In this document: piece after piece, positions 77 to 37,325 of the stretch
How the letters are laid out: every line of letters begins with the position of its first letter
How positions within the stretch are numbered: position 1 is the first letter of the stretch
Source of the DNA: Omnitrophica WOR_2 bacterium RIFOXYA2_FULL_38_17
Lineage (GTDB): Bacteria; Omnitrophota; Gorgyraeia; Zapsychrales; Zapsychraceae
Direction of reading: 5' to 3'
Length of the DNA stretch: 64,000 nt
Assembly (NCBI GenBank): GCA_001805965.1
Contig: MHHG01000006.1
Coordinates: 3,741-67,740 of the forward strand
The notes under the pieces: generated by a model
The model's input: only the letters and a program-made list of their open reading frames with translations
What the model was told of the DNA's origin: nothing
The model's database searches: none
Translations under genes and position numbers: made by a program

Positions 77-955
77 ATGTTCGAAATTATTAATAAACAG
101 ATAATTGCGGAAAGCATAAAGAGAATAGATGTTTATGCTCCAGATATTGCAAGCAAGGTTTTGCCGGGACAGTTTGTAAAGATATGCCCTGAGGAAGGTG
201 ATGAAAGTATTCCTTTAACGGTTTCGGACCATGATGCGGCAAGAGGGATCATTACGCTTATTTTCCAGGAGGTTGGAAGCACAACTGGAAAATTAGGATC
301 TTTGCCAATAGGGGAAGCTGTATTTTCTATTCTTGGTCCTTTGGGTAAGGCGGTTCACATTGAAAAAGTGGGCAGGGTTATTTGTATTGCAACTGGAATA
401 GGAGCTGCTCAGATCCTTCCTATTTGTCGTGCCTTGAAAAAAGAGGGAAACAAAATTGTCGGCATAATTGGAGCTAAGACAAAATCAAAATTGATGCTTG
501 AAGCACAGATGAGAATAGCGTGTGATAAAATTCTTATTGCAACGGAAGATGGTTCTTATGTAAGGAGAGGGCTTGCTTCTGATGTTTTAAGAGAGGTCAT
601 TGGAAAAGAATCAATAGACCTTGTATATGCAATTGGTAATTTGGAAATGATGGAAACAGTTTGCTCAATTACAAAAAAAGCAAAGATCAAGACTCTAGTT
701 CAGCTAAAGCCTATCATGGTAGATTGCGTCGGAATGTGTGGGTCTTGCAGGGTAAAGGTCGGTGGCAAGATATTGATGGCGTGTACAGATGGACCGGAGT
801 TTGATGGCCATAAAGTGGATTTTAAAGATTATCAAATCAGGAAAAAATCACATGAGGAAGCAGGCAAATGCTTAAATCAAAAGTCATTACCCAATCAGCA
901 ACAAAGAGAATCGGGAATTTTAACGAAGTTTCTCTCGGGTATTCTAAAAAAATAG
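77..955 (+). CDS. NfnA/SudB/PyrK-family FAD/NAD(P)-binding ferredoxin reductase-like electron-transfer subunit
   Basis: The translation has an FAD/NAD-binding oxidoreductase fold and a C-terminal Cys cluster (CVGMCGSCRV) typical of the [2Fe-2S] PyrK/NfnA subunits. It is immediately followed by, and overlaps, a GltD/NfnB-like gene. Confidence 0.7.
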   Translation: MFEIINKQIIAESIKRIDVYAPDIASKVLPGQFVKICPEEGDESIPLTVSDHDAARGIITLIFQEVGSTTGKLGSLPIGEAVFSILGPLGKAVHIEKVGRVICIATGIGAAQILPICRALKKEGNKIVGIIGAKTKSKLMLEAQMRIACDKILIATEDGSYVRRGLASDVLREVIGKESIDLVYAIGNLEMMETVCSITKKAKIKTLVQLKPIMVDCVGMCGSCRVKVGGKILMACTDGPEFDGHKVDFKDYQIRKKSHEEAGKCLNQKSLPNQQQRESGILTKFLSGILKK

Positions 956-2244
956 CGATAGAGGAGTCGAGGAGGTGTCCGCAGTGCACTGAACCTAAGT
1001 GTGTTGATGCTTGTCCGGCTCGAGTTGATATCCCTAAGTTTATCAGGGCATTAAGAGAAGGGGATATCGCAGGAGCATATTCTAAGATAAAGGAAGAGAA
1101 TTGTTTCCCATCTGTTTGTGGACGTATATGTTTTGCGCCTTGTGAAGATGCGTGTGTATTAGCCAAGGAGAACGCTCCTATCGGAATTCGTGCACTTGAG
1201 AGATATATTGCTGATTTTGGTAAATCACGTTTTACAAAAAAGGAATCTTTTTTAAAAATAGCAAAAAGAGTTGCTATTATCGGGGCAGGTCCCAGCGGTC
1301 TTGCAGCAGCCTGCAGCCTTTCAAATAAAGGTTATTCTGTTGAGGTTTTTGAATCATCCGATAAACCAGGAGGGGTCTTATTCTACGGTGTACCGGGTTT
1401 TAGGATACCAAAAAAAGTTCTGGAATCTGAGATCAATGATATTAAAGCCTTAGGCGTAGAGATAAAGAATAATTTTCTGGCAGGCAAAACAGTGCTAATT
1501 GAGGAATTGTTTGGCTCGGGATTTAATGCTGTCTTGATAGCAACCGGAGCAGGAATCCCAAAGCTAATTGACCTACCTGGGGCAAATTTAGGCGGTGTTT
1601 ATTATGGCGAAGAGTTTCTAATGAGGACTAATCTTATTAAGACGAACATTTTTTCCAGATATGTTCCTTCTTTTCCTTTGGGAGAAAGGATCGCTGTTGT
1701 TGGCTCCGGTAATACTGCTTTAGATTGTGCCAGGTCAGCAGTAAGATTTGGCAGGTCAGTCAGCTTGATCTTTAGGAGGACTGAAGATGAGATGATGGTG
1801 CGTTTTGAAGAAAGACAATATGCAAAGGAAGAGGGGGTCAGTTTTCATTCACTAACTCGTCCTGTAGAAATTATTTCAAATAATAGTGGGTTTGTAGGTG
1901 GTTTAAAATGTGTGCGTATGGATTATGCAGATGAAGATTCTGACGGAAAATGGCAGCTTGCTGAAGTTCCGGATTCTGAATTTATTATTGAAGCTGACAC
2001 CGTAGTGATTGCAGTCGGACATAAACCTAATTCTTTAGCTTGTAAAGACAGTGCCAAGATGTCGCCGTCAATCAGTAAAAGTGGCACTATCAAGGTTAAC
2101 AGCAGTAATCTTATGACAAACATTGAAGGGGTTTTTGCTTGTGGCAATGTGACAACTGATGCACGTCCTCTGGTTGAAGCTATTGCATCAGGGAAACGGG
2201 CTGCAGAGGGTATAGATGTTTATTTGAAGAAGATCGTTAAATGA
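868..2244 (+). CDS. NfnB/GltD/SudA-family NAD(P)H-dependent oxidoreductase (glutamate synthase small-chain-like)
   Basis: N-terminal 2x[4Fe-4S] Cys motifs (CPQCTEPKCVDACP; CGRICFAPCEDAC). Two dinucleotide-binding GxGxxG motifs (IIGAGPSGLAAA; VVGSGNTALDCA). The start overlaps the preceding ORF by 88 nt. Confidence 0.8.
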   Translation: MLKSKVITQSATKRIGNFNEVSLGYSKKIAIEESRRCPQCTEPKCVDACPARVDIPKFIRALREGDIAGAYSKIKEENCFPSVCGRICFAPCEDACVLAKENAPIGIRALERYIADFGKSRFTKKESFLKIAKRVAIIGAGPSGLAAACSLSNKGYSVEVFESSDKPGGVLFYGVPGFRIPKKVLESEINDIKALGVEIKNNFLAGKTVLIEELFGSGFNAVLIATGAGIPKLIDLPGANLGGVYYGEEFLMRTNLIKTNIFSRYVPSFPLGERIAVVGSGNTALDCARSAVRFGRSVSLIFRRTEDEMMVRFEERQYAKEEGVSFHSLTRPVEIISNNSGFVGGLKCVRMDYADEDSDGKWQLAEVPDSEFIIEADTVVIAVGHKPNSLACKDSAKMSPSISKSGTIKVNSSNLMTNIEGVFACGNVTTDARPLVEAIASGKRAAEGIDVYLKKIVK

Positions 2245-2273
2245 TTTATTAAGTTTGAACTGAGGAAGATATA

Positions 2274-3113
2274 ATGAACCAAAGGATAACTGTTCAAGAG
2301 ATAATAGCTAAAAAGAAATCCGGAGAGAAGATAACGGTACTTACTGCTTATGATTATTCTGGTGCGTTGTTAATCGATAAAGCAGGTATTGATATTGTTT
2401 TAGTCGGAGATTCTCTTGCAAATGTTGTCCTGGGCCTGGATTCTACTCTAGAAGTAGGCATGGCAGAAATGATACATCATGCAAAGGCAGTAAACAGGGG
2501 TGTTAAGAGGGCGCTTGTTGTTGGGGATATGCCTTATGAGGCCTATCAAATTGATGTATTTAAAGCAGTTGAAAATGCAAAGAGGTTTGTTGATGAAGCT
2601 GGATGTGATGCCATCAAGCTTGAGTGGTTCGATCAATGTTTAGAAGTTGCAGAAATGGTAGTTGCCCAGGGAATACCTGTAATGGGACATGTTGGTTTAA
2701 CTCCTCAGACTGCTGAAAAGTTGGGGGGGTTTAAAGTTCAGGGTAAAGATGCTGAATCCGCGAAAAAGATCATTGATAATGCAAAGGCCTTAGAGGCAAA
2801 AGGATGCTTTTGTGTGGTATTAGAATGTGTCCCTTTTGCTTTGGCCGAGATCATCACTAAAGAGTTAAGTATCCCTACGATAGGGATCGGGGCCGGCGTC
2901 TATTGCGATGGACAGGTTTTGGTAACAAATGATCTCTTGGGATTGTTTGATAGATATGTCCCAAAATTTGTTAAAAAATATGCGGACCTGAGCGAAGCTA
3001 CATTAAAAGCAATAACTCAATTCCGGGATGAAGTAAAAGCTAGGAAATTTCCTGATGTTGAGCATAGCTATTCAATGTCAATTGATGAAATTAATAGAAT
3101 AAAGGAAGCATAA
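2274..3113 (+). CDS. panB: 3-methyl-2-oxobutanoate hydroxymethyltransferase (ketopantoate hydroxymethyltransferase)
   Basis: Protein-level match to the PanB family ([21 protein letters not shown] motifs). Length of 279 aa is typical. Confidence 0.9.
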
Positions 3114-3115
3114 TA

Positions 3116-3454
3116 ATGAAAAAATGCCCCTTTTGTGCCGAAGAGATACAGGATGAAGCAATAAAGTGTAAGCATTGTTCTGAGTTTTTAAATGGAGCAA
3201 GGCCTGCTCCACAAAAAAAGGACAATTTGTCATTGATGCAAAAAGTTCCCTGGTTCTTGGGATTTTTAATTATCGGCCCTTTTGTTTTACCTCTTGTTTG
3301 GAAGAATGCGAAATATTCAAAAGAATATAAGATAATTATTACGATAGTGATATTAGCGCTCACATTGGTTATTGTGTTCGCGTTGATCGCTGCTGTAAAA
3401 AGCATAGCAGCCTATTACAAGAGCCTGACTAATTTATTTAATGGTATGTATTAA
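3116..3454 (+). CDS. zinc-ribbon (CPFC...CKHC) membrane protein, unknown function
   Basis: N-terminal CxxC-x13-CxxC zinc ribbon followed by two predicted TM helices. Its start is 2 nt after the panB stop. Confidence 0.5.
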
Positions 3455-3602
3455 TAGAATGTAAATTATCTTGAATTTATATCCCCGCATAATTACCGTG
3501 GGGAGTTTAATTTGGTTAGCTTTTACTGGACATCATGGTTAATATTTGTTAGTATGCCCACGTTTTTTTAAGTATAGTTCGCTGGTTTGATCGATAAAAG
3601 CA

Positions 3603-27336: not shown

Positions 27337-28116
27337 ATGAGAACAAAAAATCCAGCTTTAAATTTGAAGGCATTTGATCAGGTTCGAAGCTATGGCTCGG
27401 GTGAATCGATGACTATTCAAGGAACAGTAAACAAAACATTTGTCATGCTGTTCTTGTTAGTCATGAGCGCGTCATGGGTATGGTCCAAATTAATGCGTCC
27501 GGCCGCACTTGTCGGAGGGTTTGAAGCAGTTGCAGATAAGCCTGTTGTCAATGTGGGGCCTTACTTGATGCTAGGACTGATCGGCGGAATGATCGTAGCA
27601 CTAGTAACTATATTTAAAAAAGAATGGGCCCCAGTTTCTGCTCCGATCTATGCCGTGTTAGAAGGATTATTTATTGGAGGCATTTCTGCTATTTTTGAAA
27701 TGCAGTACCCGGGGATCGTAATTCAGGCAGTTTCGCTGACATTTGCAACAATGTTCTCTTTGTTGGTAGCTTATAAATTCCAGATAATAAGAGTAACTCA
27801 GAAGTTTAGGATGGGCATAATTGCAGCAACGGGGGCAATATGCTTAGTTTATTTTATAAACTTTATAATGAGTTTCTTCGGTGGTTCTATTTCAGTTATT
27901 CATAGCAACGGGACTTTTGGTATAGTTTTCAGTTTGATAGTTGTTGCTATCGCAGCTTTAAACCTGGTTTTAGATTTTGATTTTATAGAGAATGCATCAT
28001 TAATGGGCCTTCCGAAATATATGGAATGGTATGGTGCTTTTGGTCTTATGGTAACTTTGGTATGGCTATACATAGAGATATTAAGACTACTTTCAAAGTT
28101 AAGAAGCAGGGACTAA
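27337..28116 (+). CDS. Bax-inhibitor-1/YccA-like 7-TM membrane protein
   Basis: 259 aa, about 7 TM. N-terminal arrangement similar to the BI-1 family. The assignment is tentative. Confidence 0.45.
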   Translation: MRTKNPALNLKAFDQVRSYGSGESMTIQGTVNKTFVMLFLLVMSASWVWSKLMRPAALVGGFEAVADKPVVNVGPYLMLGLIGGMIVALVTIFKKEWAPVSAPIYAVLEGLFIGGISAIFEMQYPGIVIQAVSLTFATMFSLLVAYKFQIIRVTQKFRMGIIAATGAICLVYFINFIMSFFGGSISVIHSNGTFGIVFSLIVVAIAALNLVLDFDFIENASLMGLPKYMEWYGAFGLMVTLVWLYIEILRLLSKLRSRD

Positions 28117-28137
28117 TAGAAAGAGCATACATCTTTA

Positions 28138-29559
28138 ATGGCATCAGTTACTAGAAAATCCTTAGTAAGGGATCATTTTGATAGCATTGCCAGTGAATAT
28201 GATTATTGGAAGAAAAAGAACAGCTATTACTATGACACAATAATCGAATTTGTATCGAGGATCGTGCCAGAAGGCAGCACTGTTCTTGAGATAGGTTGTG
28301 CGACTGGCTCGATCCTTTCAGCGATAAAGCCTTCTAGAGGCGTCGGAGTGGATCTTAGCTCTGAAATGATCAAGATCGCTTCAGCAAAATATCCTGAATA
28401 TTCTTTCTACAGCCTACCTATAGAAAAACTGCAGCTTGATGAAAAGTTTGATTTCATTTTAATGATCGATGTTGTTGATCATGTTTATGATGTAATGGAT
28501 GTCTTTGAGCAAGTCCACAAGTTCTGCAAGCCCACAACAAGAATAGTTCTTACCACAATAAATCCCTGGTGGGACCCGATCCTTTCAGTAATGGAAAGGC
28601 TTGGTGCTAAGATGCCGGAAGGGCCCCATAATTTTATAGAAAAAGGGAATTTAAAAAGAATGGCTGAGGCGGAAGATATTTCAGTTAGTTATAGTGGGTA
28701 TCTTTTATTGTTCCCTAAAAAAATCCCAATACTGTCATTTCTGGCAAATTCAATTGGCGTCAGAACATGGCTTATAAATAAATTCTCTTGTGTTCAGTAT
28801 ATGATAATGCAGACATTACCAAAGAATACAAATAATCTTGACCTTGGGTGTTCTGTTATTATCCCGTGTCACAATGAACAAGACAATATTCAGGATGCTA
28901 TCAAGAGAGTTCCTCATATGGGAAAGGGCACTGAGATTATTGTCGTTGATGACGGGAGCACTGATTCAACGTCCAAAAAAGTGAAAGAAATGATGGAGTT
29001 CTATTCAAACTTAAATTTAATAAGTTACCCGAAGAACGAAGGAAAAGGCGCTGCGGTCAAGAAGGGATTTGAGGCAGCTACGAAAGAAGTGGTAATGGTA
29101 TTGGATGCAGATCTTTCAGTAAGTCCGGAAGAGCTGCCGAGGTTTTTTGAGCCATTAAATAAAGGTATCTGTCAGTTTGTCAATGGTACGAGAATGGTCT
29201 ACCCGATGGAACATCAGGCAATGAGGATATTGAATCTTTTGGGCAATAAGTTATTCGGATTTATCCTTTCATTTATTATTCAGCAGAATCTCACAGATAC
29301 TTTGTGCGGGACAAAAGCGCTTTATCGTAAAGATGTTGATAGAATTAAATGGGGCACGGATAAGTGGGGGGATTTTGATCTTCTATTCGGAGCAACAAGA
29401 ATAGGCAGTAAGATAATCGAGATACCGGTGCACTATATGTCCAGAAAGACAGGTGAGTCCAAAATGAGATCATTTAAACACGGGCTTCATTTGTTAAGGG
29501 CTTGTTTTTTAGGGTTTATAGAACTAGTATCAAGCCGGTCTGATGAAAAGTTCAAGTGA
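28138..29559 (+). CDS. bifunctional class I SAM-dependent methyltransferase / GT2 polyprenyl-phosphate sugar synthase (ArnC/DPM1/GtrB-like) fusion
   Basis: N-terminal half carries a methyltransferase motif I (VLEIGCATGSIL). C-terminal half is GT2 (CSVIIPCHNEQDNI; VVDDGSTDST; LDAD). It ends in a short hydrophobic segment. Confidence 0.75.
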   Translation: MASVTRKSLVRDHFDSIASEYDYWKKKNSYYYDTIIEFVSRIVPEGSTVLEIGCATGSILSAIKPSRGVGVDLSSEMIKIASAKYPEYSFYSLPIEKLQLDEKFDFILMIDVVDHVYDVMDVFEQVHKFCKPTTRIVLTTINPWWDPILSVMERLGAKMPEGPHNFIEKGNLKRMAEAEDISVSYSGYLLLFPKKIPILSFLANSIGVRTWLINKFSCVQYMIMQTLPKNTNNLDLGCSVIIPCHNEQDNIQDAIKRVPHMGKGTEIIVVDDGSTDSTSKKVKEMMEFYSNLNLISYPKNEGKGAAVKKGFEAATKEVVMVLDADLSVSPEELPRFFEPLNKGICQFVNGTRMVYPMEHQAMRILNLLGNKLFGFILSFIIQQNLTDTLCGTKALYRKDVDRIKWGTDKWGDFDLLFGATRIGSKIIEIPVHYMSRKTGESKMRSFKHGLHLLRACFLGFIELVSSRSDEKFK

Positions 29560-30923
29560 TTTATAAGTATTATTAAAATTGGAGCAAGCGGGTAGAAATG
29601 TAATATCAATCTTGAAAGAGTTGTTACTTTTTTATCGCCTGCTATCCATGGATAATTTGAAGTAAATAAGGCTATTGCCGAGTAAAGACCTATAAAAAGA
29701 AAAATGCTTACAAGAACAAGGAAAGCTTCCCTGTTCTTTTTTTTATAATCCCATAATAAAATACTAACACAAGCTATCATCCATACGATATTCCAGTTTC
29801 CAGATAAAAACATATTAAGATAGAACGCATGAATAACTTTTGGTAGCTTCAATAACTGTCCCAAGCCCAACACGAGGGCAGTCTTATCACAATCTGCAGT
29901 ACCATCAATAAGATTATTGGTAAAAAATTTATAAATATGAAAAGACAGGCAAATTGTAAGCGAGGGTATTAATAACGCCAGGGTATTTTTTATGTTCTCT
30001 TTAAAAGAAGTTTTATTAAAAAAACTGATCATTATAAACAGGATGATATAAATAACAATAAACGATGAGCCTTCAAGCTTAGTGAATGATGCAAATCCTG
30101 CAAAAAATGCTGCTGTTATAAGGAAAGAGGTTTTTTTGCTGGATGACCAAAGTATCAACATCATTATAGTTATGCAGTTGTAATACATTAAAAATAGGTC
30201 TCTATATGAAATGGTGGCATGATAAAAGGCCAGGTTAGATGATATTAAGAGTACACAGCCCAGCAATGACCATGTCGTATCCGTGTAGTTCTTTAGAAAT
30301 TTATATTGAACTATGAGGAAAGAAAGAAAAGTACAAGGGAAAATAATCTTTATGTATTGATCTGACCAGCGACCTATATTAATAGCTGTCCAAGTTTCAG
30401 CCAAAGAAGTGTGAAGCGGGTATGTCGGATGCGGCAGGATCTTAAGAGAGGGAATGCTCTTTTCATAAAAGAAAATCTTTGCTTTGAAAGCGATCGTAGC
30501 AAAAGCGTCCCATGAGTCAATAGGCCAGCTTATCGCCCCCCAGAATATCTGAAGTATATTTACAGTGATAAATATTATAAGAAAGGAGTTAAATGATATT
30601 AGCATTATGCTTGGTTTTGGTGTAGTGACAATATCCTTTGGAGTTTGGATATTTTCAGATAGCGGGGTGCTATGCTTTGCTATAAGTAGGAAAATAAAAG
30701 AAAAACAAACGAGAGGAAATGTAGTATTTGCAAAATTTAATTCTAACCCGGATATGCCAATAATAAACATCCATATTGTAAGTATGCCCATGCCCATTCC
30801 ATATGAGAGGGCCAGATTTAAAACAATATCAAGTTTGTTCTTTGTAAAAATAAAAGATATTAGGCAATAACCACAAAACACGGGTATTAGTACGCTTATT
30901 AATAATAAGATAGAAAGGGCCAT
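29487..30923 (-). CDS. GT-C fold polytopic membrane glycosyltransferase (PMT/ArnT-like, GT39/GT83 family)
   Basis: 478 aa with at least 11 TM helices and an architecture like 4-amino-4-deoxy-L-arabinose or protein mannosyltransferases. Its 3' end overlaps the 3' end of the GT2 fusion gene convergently by 73 nt. Confidence 0.55.
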   Translation of the reverse strand: MALSILLLISVLIPVFCGYCLISFIFTKNKLDIVLNLALSYGMGMGILTIWMFIIGISGLELNFANTTFPLVCFSFIFLLIAKHSTPLSENIQTPKDIVTTPKPSIMLISFNSFLIIFITVNILQIFWGAISWPIDSWDAFATIAFKAKIFFYEKSIPSLKILPHPTYPLHTSLAETWTAINIGRWSDQYIKIIFPCTFLSFLIVQYKFLKNYTDTTWSLLGCVLLISSNLAFYHATISYRDLFLMYYNCITIMMLILWSSSKKTSFLITAAFFAGFASFTKLEGSSFIVIYIILFIMISFFNKTSFKENIKNTLALLIPSLTICLSFHIYKFFTNNLIDGTADCDKTALVLGLGQLLKLPKVIHAFYLNMFLSGNWNIVWMIACVSILLWDYKKKNREAFLVLVSIFLFIGLYSAIALFTSNYPWIAGDKKVTTLSRLILHFYPLAPILIILINHLNFSSDRLDTSSINPKKQALNK

Positions 30924-30925
30924 TT

Positions 30926-31654
30926 TTATTTCCTCAGGGTTAAAATATATTCATTGTTCATGTTTACTAAGATCTCATCCTTATCATTTATATACTTTTG
31001 GGGATCATTAACAAAGTAAAGGACATTAACATCCTTTTTTGTTTTGTTATCAAACCCGATAGTTACTTCTGGATAAAGAAAGTATTTTATTATTCTGGAG
31101 TTGATAATGCACGGATCTTCATCGCATTTTAAGTCGGTTAAAAATTCTGCTTGATGCCGCCCGGACAATTTGTTTTTTGCTCTTATGGCAAATTCGTATT
31201 CTTCCTTAAAAAGCATTGATTTCTTATCGCTTTCAGAACGCTTTTTTGTTACTGCAAAATCCTTTGTAAGAACGTTGTATCTGCTAGATTGTTGTAGGAA
31301 AGTTAATAAGAAGAAACAGAAGAACATGAATAGCAGTATGGTCCTCTTTATTGATCGAGCAGTCGAAAAATTTTTTCCAATATAGTTTATTATTGCAAAA
31401 ATATAAAGGCTAGTTACTATTAAGACCATAAAGAAATATGTAAAGCTGTATATGTGGAAATCCTTGATATTTTTTAGTGTGAAGAGATCAGAATTCGGGG
31501 TGCACAATCTTTCCTTATGTGCCTCTATGACAGCAACATAAGGGATATCCAATATGCTTTTCAATATGAAGATATAAAGTAAGGAATATAATAGGAAACA
31601 GATCAATGTCTTTAAACAGAAAAGCGTGTCTTTTTTTATGGGTAGTTGAATCAT
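30926..31654 (-). CDS. 3-TM membrane protein with conserved C-terminal domain, paralog 1 of a tandem pair
   Basis: Shares GRHQAEF...YFLYPEV...FDNKT.KD...Y...DP and an identical 3-TM layout with the adjacent ORF. It starts 2 nt after the GT-C stop on the same strand, so it is the same operon. Confidence 0.5.
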   Translation of the reverse strand: MIQLPIKKDTLFCLKTLICFLLYSLLYIFILKSILDIPYVAVIEAHKERLCTPNSDLFTLKNIKDFHIYSFTYFFMVLIVTSLYIFAIINYIGKNFSTARSIKRTILLFMFFCFFLLTFLQQSSRYNVLTKDFAVTKKRSESDKKSMLFKEEYEFAIRAKNKLSGRHQAEFLTDLKCDEDPCIINSRIIKYFLYPEVTIGFDNKTKKDVNVLYFVNDPQKYINDKDEILVNMNNEYILTLRK

Positions 31655-31677
31655 TGTTTCTTGTTTGTAAAAAAAAA

Positions 31678-32394
31678 TTATTGTTGATGTTCTGTTAAAA
31701 TGAAATTGTCTTTAATGTTAACTAAGGTCTTGTCATTTTCAGAAATAAAGCTTTTTGGGTCCTCTGAAAAATAAATAACCTTATGGTCTTTAGGCGTTTT
31801 ATTGTCAAATCTCAATGAGACTTCTGGATATAGAAAGTACGAAATCATTCGCAGTTTTTTCATGCCAGGATTAATGTTGCAATCAAGACTGGTAATAAAG
31901 TCCGCTTGATGCCTTCCTTTGACAGCCTTTTTTGACAGAAGTGAAAAATAGTATTCACCTTTGAAAAGAGCCAGATTCCTTTCGACCTCAGTTTTGCCTT
32001 TCATTGTTGAATAGTCCTTTATAGTCTGATTGCACCTGTTTAATTGCTGAAATAAAGCAATAGTAAAGAAATTAAGCATTATGAAGGAATAAATAATTTT
32101 TCGTATTGTTTTTATTAAAGAGTTATCCCCGAAGAACAGCCTTGTGATACTTATGGAGAATATTGTTGACGAAAAAATAAAGATAATCCAATAAAAATAA
32201 CTGTAAATGTTTATTCCTTTGATCTTTATAAGCTTAATGAGATTTTCTCTTCGGTGGATAAGGATCTTTCCTAAAATCTTAATAAGATCAAAGGGTGACA
32301 TTTTTAATAAAAAGGCAAGAAAACATATAGCTAGAACGGGATATATGACAATAGCTGCTATTAAAAGCTTATTGAATTTCGGATTATTGTTCAT
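31678..32394 (-). CDS. 3-TM membrane protein with conserved C-terminal domain, paralog 2 of a tandem pair
   Basis: Paralogous to 30926..31654 across the TM region and the C-terminal about 115 aa (GRHQADF...YFLYPEVSLRFDNKTPKD). It is the first gene of the minus-strand operon. Confidence 0.5.
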   Translation of the reverse strand: MNNNPKFNKLLIAAIVIYPVLAICFLAFLLKMSPFDLIKILGKILIHRRENLIKLIKIKGINIYSYFYWIIFIFSSTIFSISITRLFFGDNSLIKTIRKIIYSFIMLNFFTIALFQQLNRCNQTIKDYSTMKGKTEVERNLALFKGEYYFSLLSKKAVKGRHQADFITSLDCNINPGMKKLRMISYFLYPEVSLRFDNKTPKDHKVIYFSEDPKSFISENDKTLVNIKDNFILTEHQQ

Positions 32395-32530
32395 GAAAGG
32401 TTTTTTTCTGTCGTTTATATGGAATGTCTTCTTTCCTGTATTTTATCGGTTTTGTATTGTTTCGCAAGAAAAGAGTTTTTTACTTTAATATATATATGTT
32501 ATTCAAATTATTAACGTTTATAACAAAAAT

Positions 32531-32559
32531 TTGACAAAGCGGCAGACATCCTACATACT
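32531..32559 (+). promoter_or_regulatory. candidate sigma70 promoter for the multi-receiver gene (TTGACA-17-CATACT), within a divergent intergenic region
   Basis: TTGACA at 32531-32536, 17-nt spacer, CATACT (4/6 to consensus). An AAGGAGA RBS lies at 32614-32620 and an in-frame ATG at 32627. Confidence 0.35.
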
Positions 32560-32602
32560 TTAATACTAATATTTTTTTCAATCCAAAATACAATTTGTTT
32601 TT

Positions 32603-35600
32603 ATGATGATCTCAAGGAGATTGTTTATGTATGTTTATTCAGGGAAAAGACGTTTTTGCGCAATTAATCGTCTTTTTATTGCATTTATATCTTTTTCGCT
32701 GTTATTTAGCTCAATGATCACAGGACCTGCTTTTGCTCAAAGCATTGGAATGCTTAACCTGCCGGTTCCTGGCACTATGGTCGTTCAATCACAGGCATTT
32801 GTCCCGGTGCTGCTTAAAGGTATGACAATTTATCCGGATGACCCGCTGAAATTTGACTTTATTGTCGATAGTGGGAACACGGATTTTGATCAAGACGAGA
32901 TACAGAAAGAATCAGAGAAGCTTGTGAAATATTTTCTGGCTTCAATGACCGTTCCCAAGGATGACCTCTGGGTCAATCTTTCTCCTTATGAAGGGGACCG
33001 CATAATAACGGATGAGCTGGGGAAAACTGAATTGGGGAGAGATCTTTTAGCTCAGGATTATATTTTAAAGCAATTAACAGCATCTTTGATGTATCCGGAA
33101 GATGAATTGGGCAGGGAATTCTGGGAAAGAATATATGAAAAAGTTCAAGATCAGTTTGGAACATCGGATATTCCCGTCAATACTTTCAACAAAGTTTGGA
33201 TCCTCCCGGAAAGTGCTACTGTTTACGAAAACGGGCATACTGTTTTTGTTGTAGAGTCAAAATTAAAGGTAATGTTGGACAGCGATTATCAGGCGATGAT
33301 GCATAGTGCTGATTCCGTAGGGGATTCCCTTGCTGGTGCCCGTGATCAAAATGGGATTAATGTAAACGGACAGGTACAAGACCTGTCCTTACAGAAATAT
33401 TCAAATATAGTCCGAGAGATACTCATTCCCGAGATTGAAAAAGAAGTTAATGAGGGAAAGAATTTTGCTCCTCTTCGTCAGATATATAATTCTTTGATAC
33501 TTGCAAAATGGTACAAAGAAACGATCAAAGATTCTTTATTGTCCTCAATTTATATTGATCAGAACAAGACCGCGGGCGTTGAGCTTGATGATACAGCGTT
33601 TAAAGAAGAGATATACCAAAGGTATCTTAAGGCATATAAAAAAGGCGTTTTTGATTATATAAAGGAAGATTATGATGCTTTAACTGATCAGGTTGTTGAT
33701 AGAAAATATTTTTCAGGCGGCTTTAGGGATACCTCAATGCTGATAGACAAGACAAGCAACAAAGCAATTATCGGAAGGTCAGTTACTGGTAAGACATTCA
33801 GTTTTGAAATGGGCATTAAGCCGGAAATCACCAGGCCGGATGTTGCTATGTTATCTGGCAAGAGGATATTAGTAGTAGACGGTGATGATACGTATTCAGA
33901 TTTGATGGAAGATATTCTTGAAAGGGAAAACGCTGTTGTTGTAACTGCTTCAGATGGGCAGCAGGCCTTGGTTATTTTAAAAGCAGACAGAAAATTTGAT
34001 CTGGTTTTAGCTGACCTGGATATGCCTAATATGAGTGGTGATCAGTTAGCAAGAATGGTAAATGAATTGGCTTTTGGGATACCTGTTGTCCTTCAAACCT
34101 GGAATGGGTCAAAAATACCGCAACTTTCTGAAAGCCTTGCAGGCATTGCTAGAGTTGTGGATAAAGGCTTGTCATTTGACCTCGGCAAATTTTACAAGGA
34201 AATTGAAAGTTCAGTTACTCAAGAAAATGCTTTGAAAAAAGATGCAGCGATGCTCTCGGGGAAAAGGATATTAGTTGTTGATGACAGTGATTTCATGCTA
34301 AAGGTCATGAAGAGCCTTTTAGAAGGACAGAATGCTGAAGTTGTAACGGCAGCTGATGGCAAAGATGCTTTAGATATACTTAAGGACGATTCAAGATTTG
34401 ACTTAATAGTTTCAGATTTTAGGATGCCTATAGTTAAGGGAGATGAACTAGCTCAGGTTGTAAAGGATTCAGGGTATGGCATCCCAGTGCTGATTCAAAC
34501 AACAAATACTGAGGAGGTGGTTTCTGGCTTGTCGAAAAGATTATCGGGAATTGCCACGGTAATTGATAAAGGCGACCTCGGGAATTTGTATAAAGGGATC
34601 AATGGTTTAATCTCACCTGAGAGAAAATCCGGAGCAGATAGGTCCATGCTCTCTGGAAAAAGGATCTTGGTAGTTGATGATTATGATTCAATGAGAGAAG
34701 GTATGGAGATACTTTTTCGAATGAGGGGTGCTGTTGTTGTCACTGCTTCAAATGGACAGGAAGCATTAGATATATTGGCAAAAGACCAGAAATTCGATTT
34801 GATAATGACAGACTATCAAATGCCTGTAATGGATGGGGTAGAATTGGCCCAAAAAGTAAGTGAAACTAAACTTGGGATACCTGTTCTCATGCAAACCGCG
34901 AAAGATGAGGAAATCCCTAGATTAACAGAGGAGCTTTCAGGTGTCGCAAATGTAATAAAAAAAGGTCTAGATAATAAAATTATTGTTGAGGCTGTTGCTA
35001 ATTCAATAGAAGGTACCATTCCAGCAAAGAAAGACAGCTCTATGTTAGCTGGAAAGAGAGTATTGGTTGTTGATGATTATCCCGGTATTGCGAGAATGAT
35101 CCAAAGGGTATTAGGCTTAAAAAATATTGCAGTTGTAACTGCTAATAATGGACAGGAAGCATTGGATATATTGGCAAAAGACCAGAAATTCGATTTGATA
35201 ATGACAGACTATCAAATGCCTGTGATGGATGGGGTAGAATTAGCCAAAAAAGTAAGTGAATCTAAATTTGGGATACCTGTTCTTATGCAAACTGCAAGAG
35301 AGGAGGAAATACCTCGATTAAAAGAAGATCTTTCAGGTGTTGCAACAATAATCAAAAAAGGCTTTGGCGTTGATGCGCTTGTTGAGGCAATCGCTGGATC
35401 AATTAAGAGCGTGGCTTCTTTAAACAAAGAGGGCTCTATGCTTAGTGAAAAGGCAAAAGTTCAGTTATCACAAATGCATGTAACTGAAGATGATGAAGTC
35501 CAGCTTAGAAGATTATCCGAAAGTGACTGGTATGAACTTATTAAACAGATAAATCAATCTAGGGTAGTAAATCCGGTCTCTTATGATGTGACAAGTGATA

Positions 35601-36154
35601 TTTTCGGTATTTATGTTGACGAGGAGCAATCGGGCTCAATGACTCAAGCTGCAATAAGAAAGATCTTGGATGCGTTAGATGATTCGTTCAACAGGCCGAT
35701 AAATCTTGTGGTTTTTACTGATTTTTCTTTAGAGGTTGGATTGGTTTATGAGGGGCTGCATAACGTATTGTTTGTTTCAACGCCTGCATTTTTAGTTGCT
35801 ATGAGCTCTGGGGAAAAATATTCTCCTGTGATCGTGTCAGGAGATATGTTGAGTAATAATAGCGATGAAGATTTGTTGGTTATTAAAGAACAACTTCAAT
35901 CAGCTACTTCTGATAATCCTCAAGCAGGAGATGTCGGTGGTATTGATATGAACAGTATTGACTTTGAAAGGACTGGCGAGGGCGTAAAAATTGAATTTTC
36001 ACCTAGCGCTTTTGACCCGGTGATAATAAATATGGGGATAGAGGGATTTTCTCCGGTGATTATTAATTTAACACCGTTAAATAGTGTGTTTCCACTTCTT
36101 GGTTTTGATTCAAGAGATGAAGATCCCTTAGAAATATCATTGGGGAGGAATTAG
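32603..36154 (+). CDS. large protein with Sec-type signal peptide, about 380-aa N-terminal domain, four tandem receiver (REC) domains and about 250-aa C-terminal domain; no output domain recognised
   Basis: Four repeats of the CheY-like receiver fold, each with an acidic pocket (VVDGDD, VVDDSD, VVDDYD, VVDDYP), a phospho-acceptor Asp (ADLDMP, SDFRMP, TDYQMP x2) and a conserved Lys (VVDKG, VIDKG, VIKKG, IIKKG). N-terminus is LFIAFISFSLLFSSMITGPAFA|QS. The true start is probably the in-frame ATG at 32627, which follows an RBS. Confidence 0.8.
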   Translation: MMISRRLFMYVYSGKRRFCAINRLFIAFISFSLLFSSMITGPAFAQSIGMLNLPVPGTMVVQSQAFVPVLLKGMTIYPDDPLKFDFIVDSGNTDFDQDEIQKESEKLVKYFLASMTVPKDDLWVNLSPYEGDRIITDELGKTELGRDLLAQDYILKQLTASLMYPEDELGREFWERIYEKVQDQFGTSDIPVNTFNKVWILPESATVYENGHTVFVVESKLKVMLDSDYQAMMHSADSVGDSLAGARDQNGINVNGQVQDLSLQKYSNIVREILIPEIEKEVNEGKNFAPLRQIYNSLILAKWYKETIKDSLLSSIYIDQNKTAGVELDDTAFKEEIYQRYLKAYKKGVFDYIKEDYDALTDQVVDRKYFSGGFRDTSMLIDKTSNKAIIGRSVTGKTFSFEMGIKPEITRPDVAMLSGKRILVVDGDDTYSDLMEDILERENAVVVTASDGQQALVILKADRKFDLVLADLDMPNMSGDQLARMVNELAFGIPVVLQTWNGSKIPQLSESLAGIARVVDKGLSFDLGKFYKEIESSVTQENALKKDAAMLSGKRILVVDDSDFMLKVMKSLLEGQNAEVVTAADGKDALDILKDDSRFDLIVSDFRMPIVKGDELAQVVKDSGYGIPVLIQTTNTEEVVSGLSKRLSGIATVIDKGDLGNLYKGINGLISPERKSGADRSMLSGKRILVVDDYDSMREGMEILFRMRGAVVVTASNGQEALDILAKDQKFDLIMTDYQMPVMDGVELAQKVSETKLGIPVLMQTAKDEEIPRLTEELSGVANVIKKGLDNKIIVEAVANSIEGTIPAKKDSSMLAGKRVLVVDDYPGIARMIQRVLGLKNIAVVTANNGQEALDILAKDQKFDLIMTDYQMPVMDGVELAKKVSESKFGIPVLMQTAREEEIPRLKEDLSGVATIIKKGFGVDALVEAIAGSIKSVASLNKEGSMLSEKAKVQLSQMHVTEDDEVQLRRLSESDWYELIKQINQSRVVNPVSYDVTSDIFGIYVDEEQSGSMTQAAIRKILDALDDSFNRPINLVVFTDFSLEVGLVYEGLHNVLFVSTPAFLVAMSSGEKYSPVIVSGDMLSNNSDEDLLVIKEQLQSATSDNPQAGDVGGIDMNSIDFERTGEGVKIEFSPSAFDPVIINMGIEGFSPVIINLTPLNSVFPLLGFDSRDEDPLEISLGRN
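34757..35362 (+). repeat. recent tandem duplication inside the multi-REC gene (REC3 vs REC4, about 90% nt identity, 396-nt period)
   Basis: 34757-34966 and 35153-35362 are near-identical at the nucleotide level. The antisense ORFs at 34816..35019 and 35212..35427 in the six-frame track are also duplicates. Confidence 0.8.
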
Positions 36155-36174: not shown

Positions 36175-36756
36175 CTACTGTAGTTTGAAGGCCTTTAGAT
36201 CTTCATATATGGGGCCTTTAGGCGTTAATATGCTTTTGATAAGTTTTATTTCTGTTATTTCCTGATAGATGCTTTGCGGGAGCGAATAAATTTTTAATGC
36301 ATTAGCAAGTGCTGAAATATTCTTTAGGCTTCGAATCCTTCCTATCGTTACATGAGGCTTAAAGGAATGCTCTTCTTTTTTAAATCCTTCCTTAGTAAGC
36401 GTGTTGTCAATTGCTTCAACCAGATCAGCTATTTCATTTGAATTATCTTCGAGCCCTATCCAGATAACTTTAGGCTTTTCAATTTTTGGAAAAGCTCCAA
36501 GTTGACTCAACTGTGTTCGAATTGATCTAATGTGTTTTGTGAGAAATTCAAGCTTTTCAACAATCTTTGGAACTCTTTTTTGCTCGATTTCTCCTAAAAA
36601 TTTTAAAGTTAAATGTACATTTGTTGTTTTTACCCATTTAACGTCGCAGTCAATATTTTCTAAATGTTCCTGAGCTTTACCGATCTCATTTAAGATCGTA
36701 TCGTTTATGTTAGCTGCAATAAATGTTCGGATGTTTTCGCTTAAATTAGTAATCAT
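36175..36756 (-). CDS. thpR: RNA 2',3'-cyclic phosphodiesterase / 2'-5' RNA ligase (LigT/ThpR, 2H phosphoesterase)
   Basis: Two HxT/SxG motifs (VHLTLKF; HVTIGR). 193 aa. Confidence 0.8.
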   Translation of the reverse strand: MITNLSENIRTFIAANINDTILNEIGKAQEHLENIDCDVKWVKTTNVHLTLKFLGEIEQKRVPKIVEKLEFLTKHIRSIRTQLSQLGAFPKIEKPKVIWIGLEDNSNEIADLVEAIDNTLTKEGFKKEEHSFKPHVTIGRIRSLKNISALANALKIYSLPQSIYQEITEIKLIKSILTPKGPIYEDLKAFKLQ

Positions 36757-36815
36757 ATTCTTAATATTAATAGTAATTCATGGTGATTAGAAAAATAACT
36801 TTTGGAAAAAACGAA

Positions 36816-37325
36816 TTATAAAAATTCTAGAAGAAGCTTAAGTGCCTGCGTTGATGCTTTTGACCTGATGTTCGACCGAGTGCCTGTAAAGACACATTCT
36901 AAACAGATTGTTTCGTAATTTGAGCAAATTGCAATAAAAACAAGGCCGACAGGCTTTGATTTTGTTCCACCAGTAGGTCCTGCAATACCGCTCAAACCTA
37001 TTGAGAAATCAGTATTTAGGATCTTTTTGCATCCTTTCGCCATTGCAATGGTTGTTTGGAAACTAACTGCGCCGTGTTTTTTAATAGTTTCTTCCGGGAC
37101 TTTAAGTAATTTTATTTTTGAATCATTGCTATAAGTAACGAGCCCTAGCTTTAAGAATGCCGAGCTTCCGGATATGTTGGTTAGACGGTTTGATATGAGG
37201 CCGCCTGTACAGGATTCCGCGATTGATAATGATTTCTTCTCAGAAATAAACAAATCAGCTATTTTTTGTTCTATTTTCATAAAGGCATTATACGGCAGGA
37301 CAAAAGTCTTGACAAGCGATAACAT
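36816..37325 (-). CDS. pncC: CinA C-terminal domain protein (nicotinamide-nucleotide amidohydrolase PncC-like)
   Basis: 169 aa. CinA_C family sequence (SIAESCTGGLIS; GLSGIAGPTGG). Confidence 0.75.
   Translation of the reverse strand: MLSLVKTFVLPYNAFMKIEQKIADLFISEKKSLSIAESCTGGLISNRLTNISGSSAFLKLGLVTYSNDSKIKLLKVPEETIKKHGAVSFQTTIAMAKGCKKILNTDFSIGLSGIAGPTGGTKSKPVGLVFIAICSNYETICLECVFTGTRSNIRSKASTQALKLLLEFL

Follow-up and report, generated by a model that had tools for sequence, protein, structure and literature searches.

We report on a four-gene locus of Omnitrophica WOR_2 bacterium RIFOXYA2_FULL_38_17 (assembly GCA_001805965.1), located in the 64,000 nucleotides (nt) of contig MHHG01000006.1 (positions 3,741 to 67,740) that were analysed here and are referred to as the window. 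The locus encodes a predicted fusion of a class I S-adenosylmethionine (SAM) methyltransferase with a family 2 glycosyltransferase (MT-GT2) and, convergent to it, two tandem paralogs of a small membrane protein family (S-A and S-B, or S when taken together) followed by a GT-C-like membrane protein (G; Table 1). All four products are named "hypothetical protein" in the database entries, and close relatives of G carry the NCBI name "glycosyltransferase family 39 protein". Our data suggest that these genes represent a candidate periplasmic glycosylation system, in which S would be the partner of G.

Gene organization

The coordinates of the open reading frames (ORFs) agree with the original prediction with respect to the four genes, their boundaries and the convergent overlap between the 3' ends of MT-GT2 and G. 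The S-A stop codon precedes the G start by 2 nt, with a Shine-Dalgarno-like GAGGA inside the S-A 3' end, and 23 nt separate the S-B stop from the S-A start.

Table 1 Features of the locus (positions refer to the window)
Feature	Position	Strand	Length	Remark
MT-GT2 (methyltransferase-GT2 fusion, predicted)	28138-29559	+	473 aa	
G (GT-C-like membrane protein)	29487-30923	-	478 aa	
S-A (paralog A, G-proximal S copy)	30926-31654	-	242 aa	
S-B (paralog B, distal S copy)	31678-32394	-	238 aa	
Convergent 3'-end overlap MT-GT2/G	29487-29559		73 nt	From ORF coordinates
Receiver-domain protein	32603-36154	+	1183 aa	Four tandem response-regulator receiver domains (PF00072, 3e-69)

G, a GT-C-fold protein

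An AlphaFold2 (AF2) model of G based on 28 sequences (predicted local distance difference test score (pLDDT) 87, predicted template modelling score (pTM) 0.90) was compared with the PDB using Foldseek, and the top 20 matches were GT-C enzymes only (probability 0.96-1.0, best TM-score 0.50, best E 4e-3). ArnT (GT83; 5ezm, probability 1.0, TM-score 0.50) ranked first, followed by Pmt4, AftA, ALG12, ALG9 and STT3. By sequence, the G profile found no solved relative in the PDB, only chance aquaporin matches, and G scored 23.1 bits against PMT_2, below the Pfam cut-off of 26.1. Across the family the likeness to PMT/PMT_2 (GT39) is weak: PMT_2 was matched in 16 of 28 members and PMT in two (E≤0.01). 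Four relatives were tested individually and exceed the Pfam cut-offs, P0012 and P0018 for PMT (29.1 and 25.5 against 22.7) and P0031 and P0053 for PMT_2 (27.3 and 28.7 against 26.1). Given that the window G falls below the cut-off while these relatives exceed it, the G family represents a divergent branch of the PMT clan. The GT-C nature originally proposed for G is thus borne out by the fold and only weakly by the PMT_2 sequence score, and the model identifies G as a GT-C-fold glycosyltransferase of the PMT_2 clan (GT39/GT83-like) with a putative transferase activity. The family comprises 58 clusters in the 90% collection, and those that are named are mostly from Omnitrophota.

G is essentially all membrane, with three N-terminal transmembrane (TM) helices ahead of the canonical TM1/external loop 1 (EL1; helix 106-132). 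The loop that follows (133-189; 57 residues, net-negative, two short helices) is predicted to be periplasmic and harbours D139, which is invariant in the 28 sequences; an invariant Asp in a long first periplasmic loop would be a feature in common with ArnT and PMT. Extrapolation of the PF02366 register (P0012 202-315 corresponding to model positions 87-208) would place the PMT DE motif, whose position in the model we presume, near G residue 140. The charge distribution across the family is compatible with an N-out orientation and with a periplasmic 133-189 loop. G differs from ArnT and PMT by the three extra N-terminal helices, which would bring its N-terminus to the periplasm, and in lacking a C-terminal periplasmic or MIR domain, and from ArnT also in overall sequence (11% identity).

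The S family

A word-indexed search for S homologues gave only five proteins, and we therefore used an exhaustive profile search, which resulted in 264 representative clusters (mostly 200-260 aa among the 150 listed). The two window copies were described beforehand as paralogs with three TM helices and a conserved C-terminal domain, and the present data agree: S-A and S-B share 34% identity across 221 aa (E 2e-45), S-B matches the S-family hidden Markov model (HMM) at 1.5e-76, three hydrophobic helices and a soluble tail of approximately 120 aa are present in each (hydropathy and AF2 model), and the GRHQAxF, YFLYPEV and FDNKT motifs are present. In the AF2 model of S-A (pLDDT 88.6; C-domain pLDDT >90), TM1 (10-35) is followed by a loop (loop 1) with an amphipathic helix and a beta-hairpin (39-63), TM2 (68-92) and a long TM3 that runs on as a stalk (96-136), and then by a compact alpha/beta domain (141-240) carrying the "YFLYP" motif.

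The family also proved as difficult to place as anticipated. For the two window copies and 23 diverse S members, Pfam gave no consistent match (GtrA, EamA/SMR and the GacJ family DUF2304 were not found at E≤1 for the 23), NCBIfam gave nothing for S-A or S-B, and in the PDB no relative was found by sequence using the family profile or by fold (Foldseek best E 0.17).

With respect to topology, the N-terminus and the TM2-TM3 loop are positively charged over 59 sequences (net +1.6 in 13 residues and +1.8 in 11, respectively) while loop 1 is not (+0.4 in 31 residues), and hence loop 1 and the C-domain are predicted to be periplasmic according to the positive-inside rule. The C-domain is also the better conserved part (mean pairwise identity 29% compared to 17% for the TM region), with T173, D174, P181, R187, Y191, Y194, P195 (100%) and D208 as conserved positions; outside it, N56 (loop 1) and Q121 (TM3 end) are conserved as well. 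The window copies deviate at different conserved family positions: S-A has D for the loop-1 Asn of the consensus P-x-x-N, while in S-B the "TD" Asp, otherwise near-invariant, is replaced by S and the loop-1 Pro by R. This complementary degeneration might fit a heteromer or subfunctionalisation.

In one S-family representative (P0174, 437 aa) a complete S follows an N-terminal half that is LigT (2',5' RNA ligase-like). The gene upstream of S is usually LigT, and P0174 therefore probably reflects read-through in gene calling or a fusion of recent date.

Pairing of S and G

Besides the window, 36 loci were collected using G as query, and 34 of these are distinct S-G-type loci, leaving out L013 (a duplicate of L003) and L036 (a fused form, see below). 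An S-family gene was found by HMM directly upstream of G and on the same strand in 33 of the 34, and in the remaining one (L033) a run of N disrupts the ORF preceding G, the N-terminal part of which still aligns weakly to the S TM region. The 33 loci contain 34 distinct full-length S-G cassettes, and a 4-nt overlap between S stop and G start is the modal arrangement (17/34). Pairs also occur in tandem, with three in L014 and two each in L007 and L016, and the same genomes carry more cassettes at other sites (L032, L034 and L035), so that a genome may contain as many as four. In a mirror-tree comparison of the cassettes, the pairwise distances of S correlate with those of G (r = 0.74, compared to a maximum of 0.32 in 2000 permutations), with S evolving faster than G. 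S is present also where there is no GT2 nearby.

Most genomes have one S per G. Extra S genes without an extra G were found only in the window (two S), L001 (three) and L005 (two), the loci that contain the closest relatives of the window G. Duplication of the small-subunit family, as originally suggested, therefore holds for the window and, as a duplication of S alone, is limited to these three loci; it is lineage-specific and appears to be recent.

The gene directly 3' of an S-G cassette in L020 (5931-8630, +) encodes 899 aa; its product matches YfhO weakly, ends in F5/8 type C (galactose-binding-like) domains, and may be another GT-C that includes a carbohydrate-binding domain.

Split and fused forms of the S domain

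A 609-aa protein in L001 combines one TM helix and a soluble domain of approximately 130 aa ("ARYFLYP") with a G-like GT-C (G profile 15-454, 3e-18), and a 610-aa protein on an activated-sludge contig (L036; "WRYFLFP") has the same build and is 29% identical to it. When one or two sequences were used, the fused N-domains compared only weakly with S (hhalign E 0.0058 and 0.0024, probability 6-12%); the score of the two-sequence comparison (E 0.0024) was reached in 0 of 100 column shuffles. Searching 1215 ORFs with an HMM of the fused N-domains, S members were 10 of the top 11 non-self matches (hypergeometric P 1e-14). A bridge is provided by L037, where P0061, the G relative that diverges most, is preceded at a distance of 1 nt by the gene for a 158-aa protein. 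This protein consists of a single TM helix and the domain ("GRYYLYP"), and it was matched by the HMMs of the S C-domain (1.9e-8) and of the fused domain (3e-5). Together, the L037 protein and the two fused domains align with the S profile over 83 columns, i.e. approximately the whole S C-domain (hhalign probability 73%, E 3.1e-5). We take these profile comparisons to indicate that the S C-domain is homologous to the domain fused at the N-terminus of related GT-Cs, a relationship that is convincing only with the L037 bridge.

In the one-TM and fused forms, a positive N-terminus and a single helix put the domain outside the cytoplasm, directly before the periplasmic N-terminus of G. This orientation agrees with the charge-based topologies of S and G.

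The gene for the fused L001 protein (611-3416, -) adjoins a Polysacc_lyase (PF14099) gene, and this neighbour hints at a polysaccharide-related acceptor for the fused paralog. On the L037 contig, a DIE2_ALG10-family (GT59-like) GT-C gene (2214-3458, +) lies just upstream of the short-S/G pair, and thus two different GT-C enzymes are encoded side by side.

The MT-GT2 fusion protein

Pfam matches in a single chain corroborate the predicted fusion. The N-terminal part of MT-GT2 (approximately aa 29-178) matches Methyltransf_23/31/11/12/25 (8e-17 to 2e-11, all above the Pfam cut-offs), identifying it by sequence as a class I SAM methyltransferase, and Glycos_transf_2 is matched at 3e-33 (residues 239-401; GT2 domain approximately aa 236-455). 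The best solved relatives of the GT2 half are Pyrococcus PfDPMS (5mlz, 9e-19), ArnC (9bhc, 1e-18) and GtrB (5ekp, 1.5e-9), with alignments spanning "SVIIP..NE" via DAD to "RKTGESK" such that R..GESK is aligned. This points, in line with the original prediction, to the DPMS/ArnC/GtrB type, i.e. a putative polyprenyl-phosphate-sugar synthase. The top NCBIfam matches and their equivalog cut-offs are AglJ (106/325 bits), haloarchaeal Dol-P-hexose transferase (79/375) and ArnC (67/529).

In 19 fusion proteins from related loci, the DxD signature (DAD, 323-325) is invariant, SAM motif I LEIGC.TG and the GVD aspartate are conserved, and the "TDTLCGTKA" stretch is invariant or nearly so, and hence both halves of MT-GT2 are under selection. 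GtrB, ArnC and PfDPMS have C-terminal TM anchor helices, whereas in MT-GT2 only a short amphipathic tail extends beyond the GT2 domain.

Donor-side linkage

MT-GT2 is convergent to G in 17 of the 34 loci. Taking other enzymes into account, a polyprenyl-phosphate-type GT2 is linked to S-G in 19 of the 34, nearly always together with methylation enzymes. One or two stand-alone methyltransferases, either class I (two families of approximately 241 and 260 aa) or FkbM-type, are encoded in 12 loci, usually between G and MT-GT2, and in L015 and L028 MT-GT2 is followed by a gene for an NAD-dependent sugar epimerase/dehydratase. The cassettes of L032, L034 and L035 are secondary ones, MT-GT2 being present at the primary locus of the respective genomes. 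That in L032 is convergent with a separate methyltransferase gene and a gene for a full-length GtrB homologue (5ekp 6e-73, ArnC 2e-46), while in L030 genes for a DPMS-like GT2 (5mlz 3e-14), a B12-binding radical SAM enzyme and a radical SAM/SPASM enzyme lie upstream of S-G. Because methyltransferases repeatedly accompany the polyprenyl-phosphate-type GT2 and S-G, the linkage points to a methylated lipid-linked sugar donor, as judged from gene neighbourhoods.

The locus is embedded in a housekeeping block that is syntenic across Omnitrophota, with FtsK-RodZ-RimO-PgsA-PgpA-BaxI on one side and CinA-LigT on the other. MT-GT2 and S-G could consequently be neighbours merely through this synteny while belonging to separate pathways, a possibility favoured by the absence of MT-GT2 from half of the S-G loci, two of which (L004 and L012) keep the rest of the block. 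Against this, S-G and MT-GT2 stay together in four loci lacking the block (L015, L028, L029 and L031), and secondary cassettes carry other polyprenyl-phosphate-type GT2s with methyltransferase-type genes (the methyltransferase and GtrB homologue of L032, the DPMS-like and B12-binding radical SAM enzymes of L030). Moreover, a GT-C requires a lipid-linked donor and MT-GT2 is the only candidate synthase nearby. We therefore consider separate pathways unlikely, while granting this explanation some weight.

Two other neighbours were rejected as parts of the system. BaxI, encoded next to MT-GT2, does not co-vary with it: L009 and L024 have BaxI and no MT-GT2, whereas L017, L019 and L026 have MT-GT2 and no BaxI, which argues against BaxI being a third component, and the GT2 adjoining S-G in L023 is generic (chondroitin-synthase/SpsA-like) and not of the polyprenyl-phosphate type.

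Genomic surroundings

Overlap between the 3' ends of G and MT-GT2 was also seen in relatives: 73 nt in L001 (7365-7437), 55 nt in both L008 (8380-8434) and L010 (5152-5206), and 4 nt in L003. The overlapping codons encode the poorly conserved C-terminal tails of MT-GT2 and G (unconserved or of low pLDDT), and for this reason the overlap may be incidental. It leaves no room for independent termination of either gene. In a promoter and terminator scan of 27900-32800, sites were no more numerous than in shuffled sequences and a terminator was not found.

The strand bias of the window (1-64000) is extreme, with 34 of 38 ORFs of ≥200 aa on the + strand and a positive GC skew in all 2-kb bins; S-S-G and LigT/CinA (36175-37325) make up one of a small number of blocks on the minus strand. 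The receiver-domain protein (Table 1) sits between S-B and LigT, and in most relatives LigT directly adjoins S. No output domain was recognised in this protein, and its N-terminal approximately 400 aa gave no Pfam match; its L001 counterpart is longer (1461 aa) with added methyltransferase domains. Several CinA-LigT-S-G...PgpA-PgsA loci are found in metagenome-assembled genomes labelled "uncultured Planctomycetales" or "Deltaproteobacteria bacterium", which probably reflects submitter taxonomy on Omnitrophota-like genomes.

Discussion

Taken individually, G and both halves of MT-GT2 are ordinary members of their families. The system as such is real and conserved, and its new element is the family of S domains, each obligately paired with a divergent GT39/83-like GT-C either as a separate protein or by fusion. 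We think it rather probable that the locus specifies a polyprenyl-phosphate-dependent periplasmic glycosylation pathway typical of Omnitrophota, with S as the dedicated partner of G. As suggested by family membership, the GT2 domain would load a sugar from a nucleotide sugar onto polyprenyl phosphate at the cytoplasmic face, and the fused SAM methyltransferase would methylate that sugar or its precursor; in relatives, the one or two further stand-alone methyltransferases probably act likewise. After the lipid-linked sugar has been flipped to the periplasmic face, G would, judging from its computed fold, transfer it to a periplasmic acceptor. S would provide a three-TM anchor with a periplasmic alpha/beta domain and be specific to each G rather than a general pathway component. 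Since G has no periplasmic domain of its own, S would supply one in trans, and in a putative S-G complex this domain would most likely position or recognise the acceptor or the donor head group. The two copies in the window perhaps confer two specificities on one G, or form a heteromer.

S is always upstream of G, is co-duplicated with it and has a predicted periplasmic C-domain homologous to one fused to GT-Cs, and for these reasons S most likely is a periplasmic subunit dedicated to G and not a flippase resembling ArnE/F or GtrA. The original prediction had likened the locus to three-part systems consisting of a synthase, small membrane subunits and a GT-C. The pairing of GT2 with GT-C is upheld by their linkage, whereas the small proteins do not behave as a third part at the level of the pathway; they track G and not GT2, and their conservation lies in the soluble domain predicted to be periplasmic, which speaks against the ArnE/F- or GtrA-like role implied for them.

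If S were nevertheless a flippase for the polyprenyl-phosphate sugar, analogous to GtrA or ArnE/ArnF, the two window copies might correspond to an ArnE/ArnF-like heterodimer. S is indeed small, with three TM helices and two tandem copies in the window, flippases of the GtrA type contain 3-4 TM helices and presumably form dimers (PMC8035078), and neither the window locus nor the related loci that were surveyed have a recognisable flippase-family gene. However, the TM helices are the least conserved part of S, its members match no transporter family consistently, and its copy number follows G, mostly one S per G, whereas in L. lactis the single flippase CflA serves several GT-A/GT-C pairs (PMC8035078). 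In addition, the domain occurs with one TM helix (L037) or fused to a GT-C (L001 and L036), architectures that are incapable of transport, and a flippase function is in our view improbable.

A partner for the other glycosyltransferase would be suggested by the absence of a TM helix in MT-GT2, which S could anchor and activate at the cytoplasmic face; the GT-A enzyme GacI of S. pyogenes works with GacJ, a small three-TM protein (PMC8035078). Like GacJ, S would be a small membrane protein devoted to one glycosyltransferase, but GacJ partners a cytoplasmic GT-A and not a GT-C, and it has no soluble domain. S always adjoins G, often without MT-GT2 at the locus, and the numbers do not correspond (two MT-GT2 genes and one S in L003, three S and one MT-GT2 in L014). 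Furthermore, the linked GT2 in L032 is a full-length GtrB homologue aligned across the entire solved GtrB chain, and S has a C-domain predicted to be periplasmic and no DUF2304 match. All this makes a GacJ-like function very improbable. That S is a dedicated acceptor glycosylated by G, as in PMT-like protein O-glycosylation, would suit the clan of G and the strict 1:1 adjacency and co-duplication, but it can hardly be credited given a compact C-domain (pLDDT >90, 9% Ser+Thr, no disordered S/T-rich stretch) whose conserved TD, R187, Y191, Y194, P195 and D208 resemble a functional site, and given that fusion to the enzyme itself is unusual for a substrate.

Several points weigh against a glycosylation pathway with S as the partner of G. 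Within 7 kb, 15 of the 34 S-G loci have no polyprenyl-phosphate-type GT2. MT-GT2 scores far below every NCBIfam equivalog cut-off and has no predicted TM helix, no segment of its 473 aa reaching the hydropathy threshold, and the methyl acceptor could be something other than a sugar. The homology between split and fused forms rests on three bridging sequences and a motif-centred alignment, and the role of S is deduced from context because its fold has no match in the PDB. Finally, PimE, the ALG enzymes and other GT-Cs that are all membrane and have no soluble domain function without a partner of this kind, and G is therefore not strictly in need of S.

Multi-component glycosylation systems use GtrA, SMR, MATE or Wzx flippases (PMC11127046, PMC8035078). 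The GtrA/GtrB/GtrC, ArnC/ArnE-F/ArnT, CsbB/GtcA/YfhO and GT136 pentofuranose systems (PMC11127046, PMC8035078) share with the window locus a genetically linked DPMS/GtrB/ArnC-type GT2 and GT-C, for which the corresponding roles are predicted here. The window locus differs from the three-component systems in three respects: it has no GtrA, SMR, MATE or Wzx flippase gene; its GT2 is without TM helices and fused to a SAM methyltransferase, to which relatives add up to two more methyltransferases; and its GT-C has an obligate upstream partner gene, S, that is found in none of the systems described.

With respect to lipid-linked sugar methylation, a close parallel is Haloferax AglJ/AglP, as the GT2 half has its best NCBIfam match in AglJ and the window system is likewise predicted to join sugar loading onto a lipid carrier with SAM-dependent methylation. 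In Haloferax N-glycosylation, AglJ is a Dol-P glycosyltransferase and AglP a SAM methyltransferase that acts on a lipid-linked sugar. The Haloferax proteins are separate and final transfer is by the STT3-type AglB, whereas in the window the two counterparts are fused, AglJ similarity is low (106 compared to 325 bits) and the transferase is ArnT/PMT-like. Small membrane proteins dedicated to one glycosyltransferase are also known as partner subunits of eukaryotic GT-Cs (PIG-M/PIG-X and the STT3 accessory subunits). In Pfam and PDB searches, S showed no sequence or fold similarity to GacJ, PIG-X or the STT3 accessory subunits. Our literature searches brought up no bacterial GT-C whose periplasmic domain is provided by an obligate subunit with a gene of its own, and the literature found on glycosyltransferases of Omnitrophota, on GT-C accessory proteins and on the methylation of lipid-linked sugars with GT-C did not describe the window system.

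A broader interpretation, which we put forward as a tentative one, is that the S "YxLYP" domain is a new modular periplasmic specificity module for GT-Cs, used in three-TM, one-TM or fused form. Omnitrophota would then have multiplied these rapidly evolving cassettes, to as many as four in a genome or, as in the window, with more than one S for a single G, in order to put methylated sugars from one lipid-linked pool onto different envelope acceptors.

Bacterial GT-Cs are usually seen as self-sufficient, with acceptor recognition built into the polypeptide. If S is an obligate and separate periplasmic subunit that is fused to the enzyme elsewhere, it would offer a way to study how acceptor specificity arises and changes in GT-Cs, and a role would be assigned to at least 264 sequence clusters of "hypothetical proteins". 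Moreover, the methyltransferase linkage predicts a methylated polyprenyl-phosphate sugar, which is a testable statement on the envelope chemistry of the Omnitrophota, a phylum known mainly through metagenome-assembled genomes.

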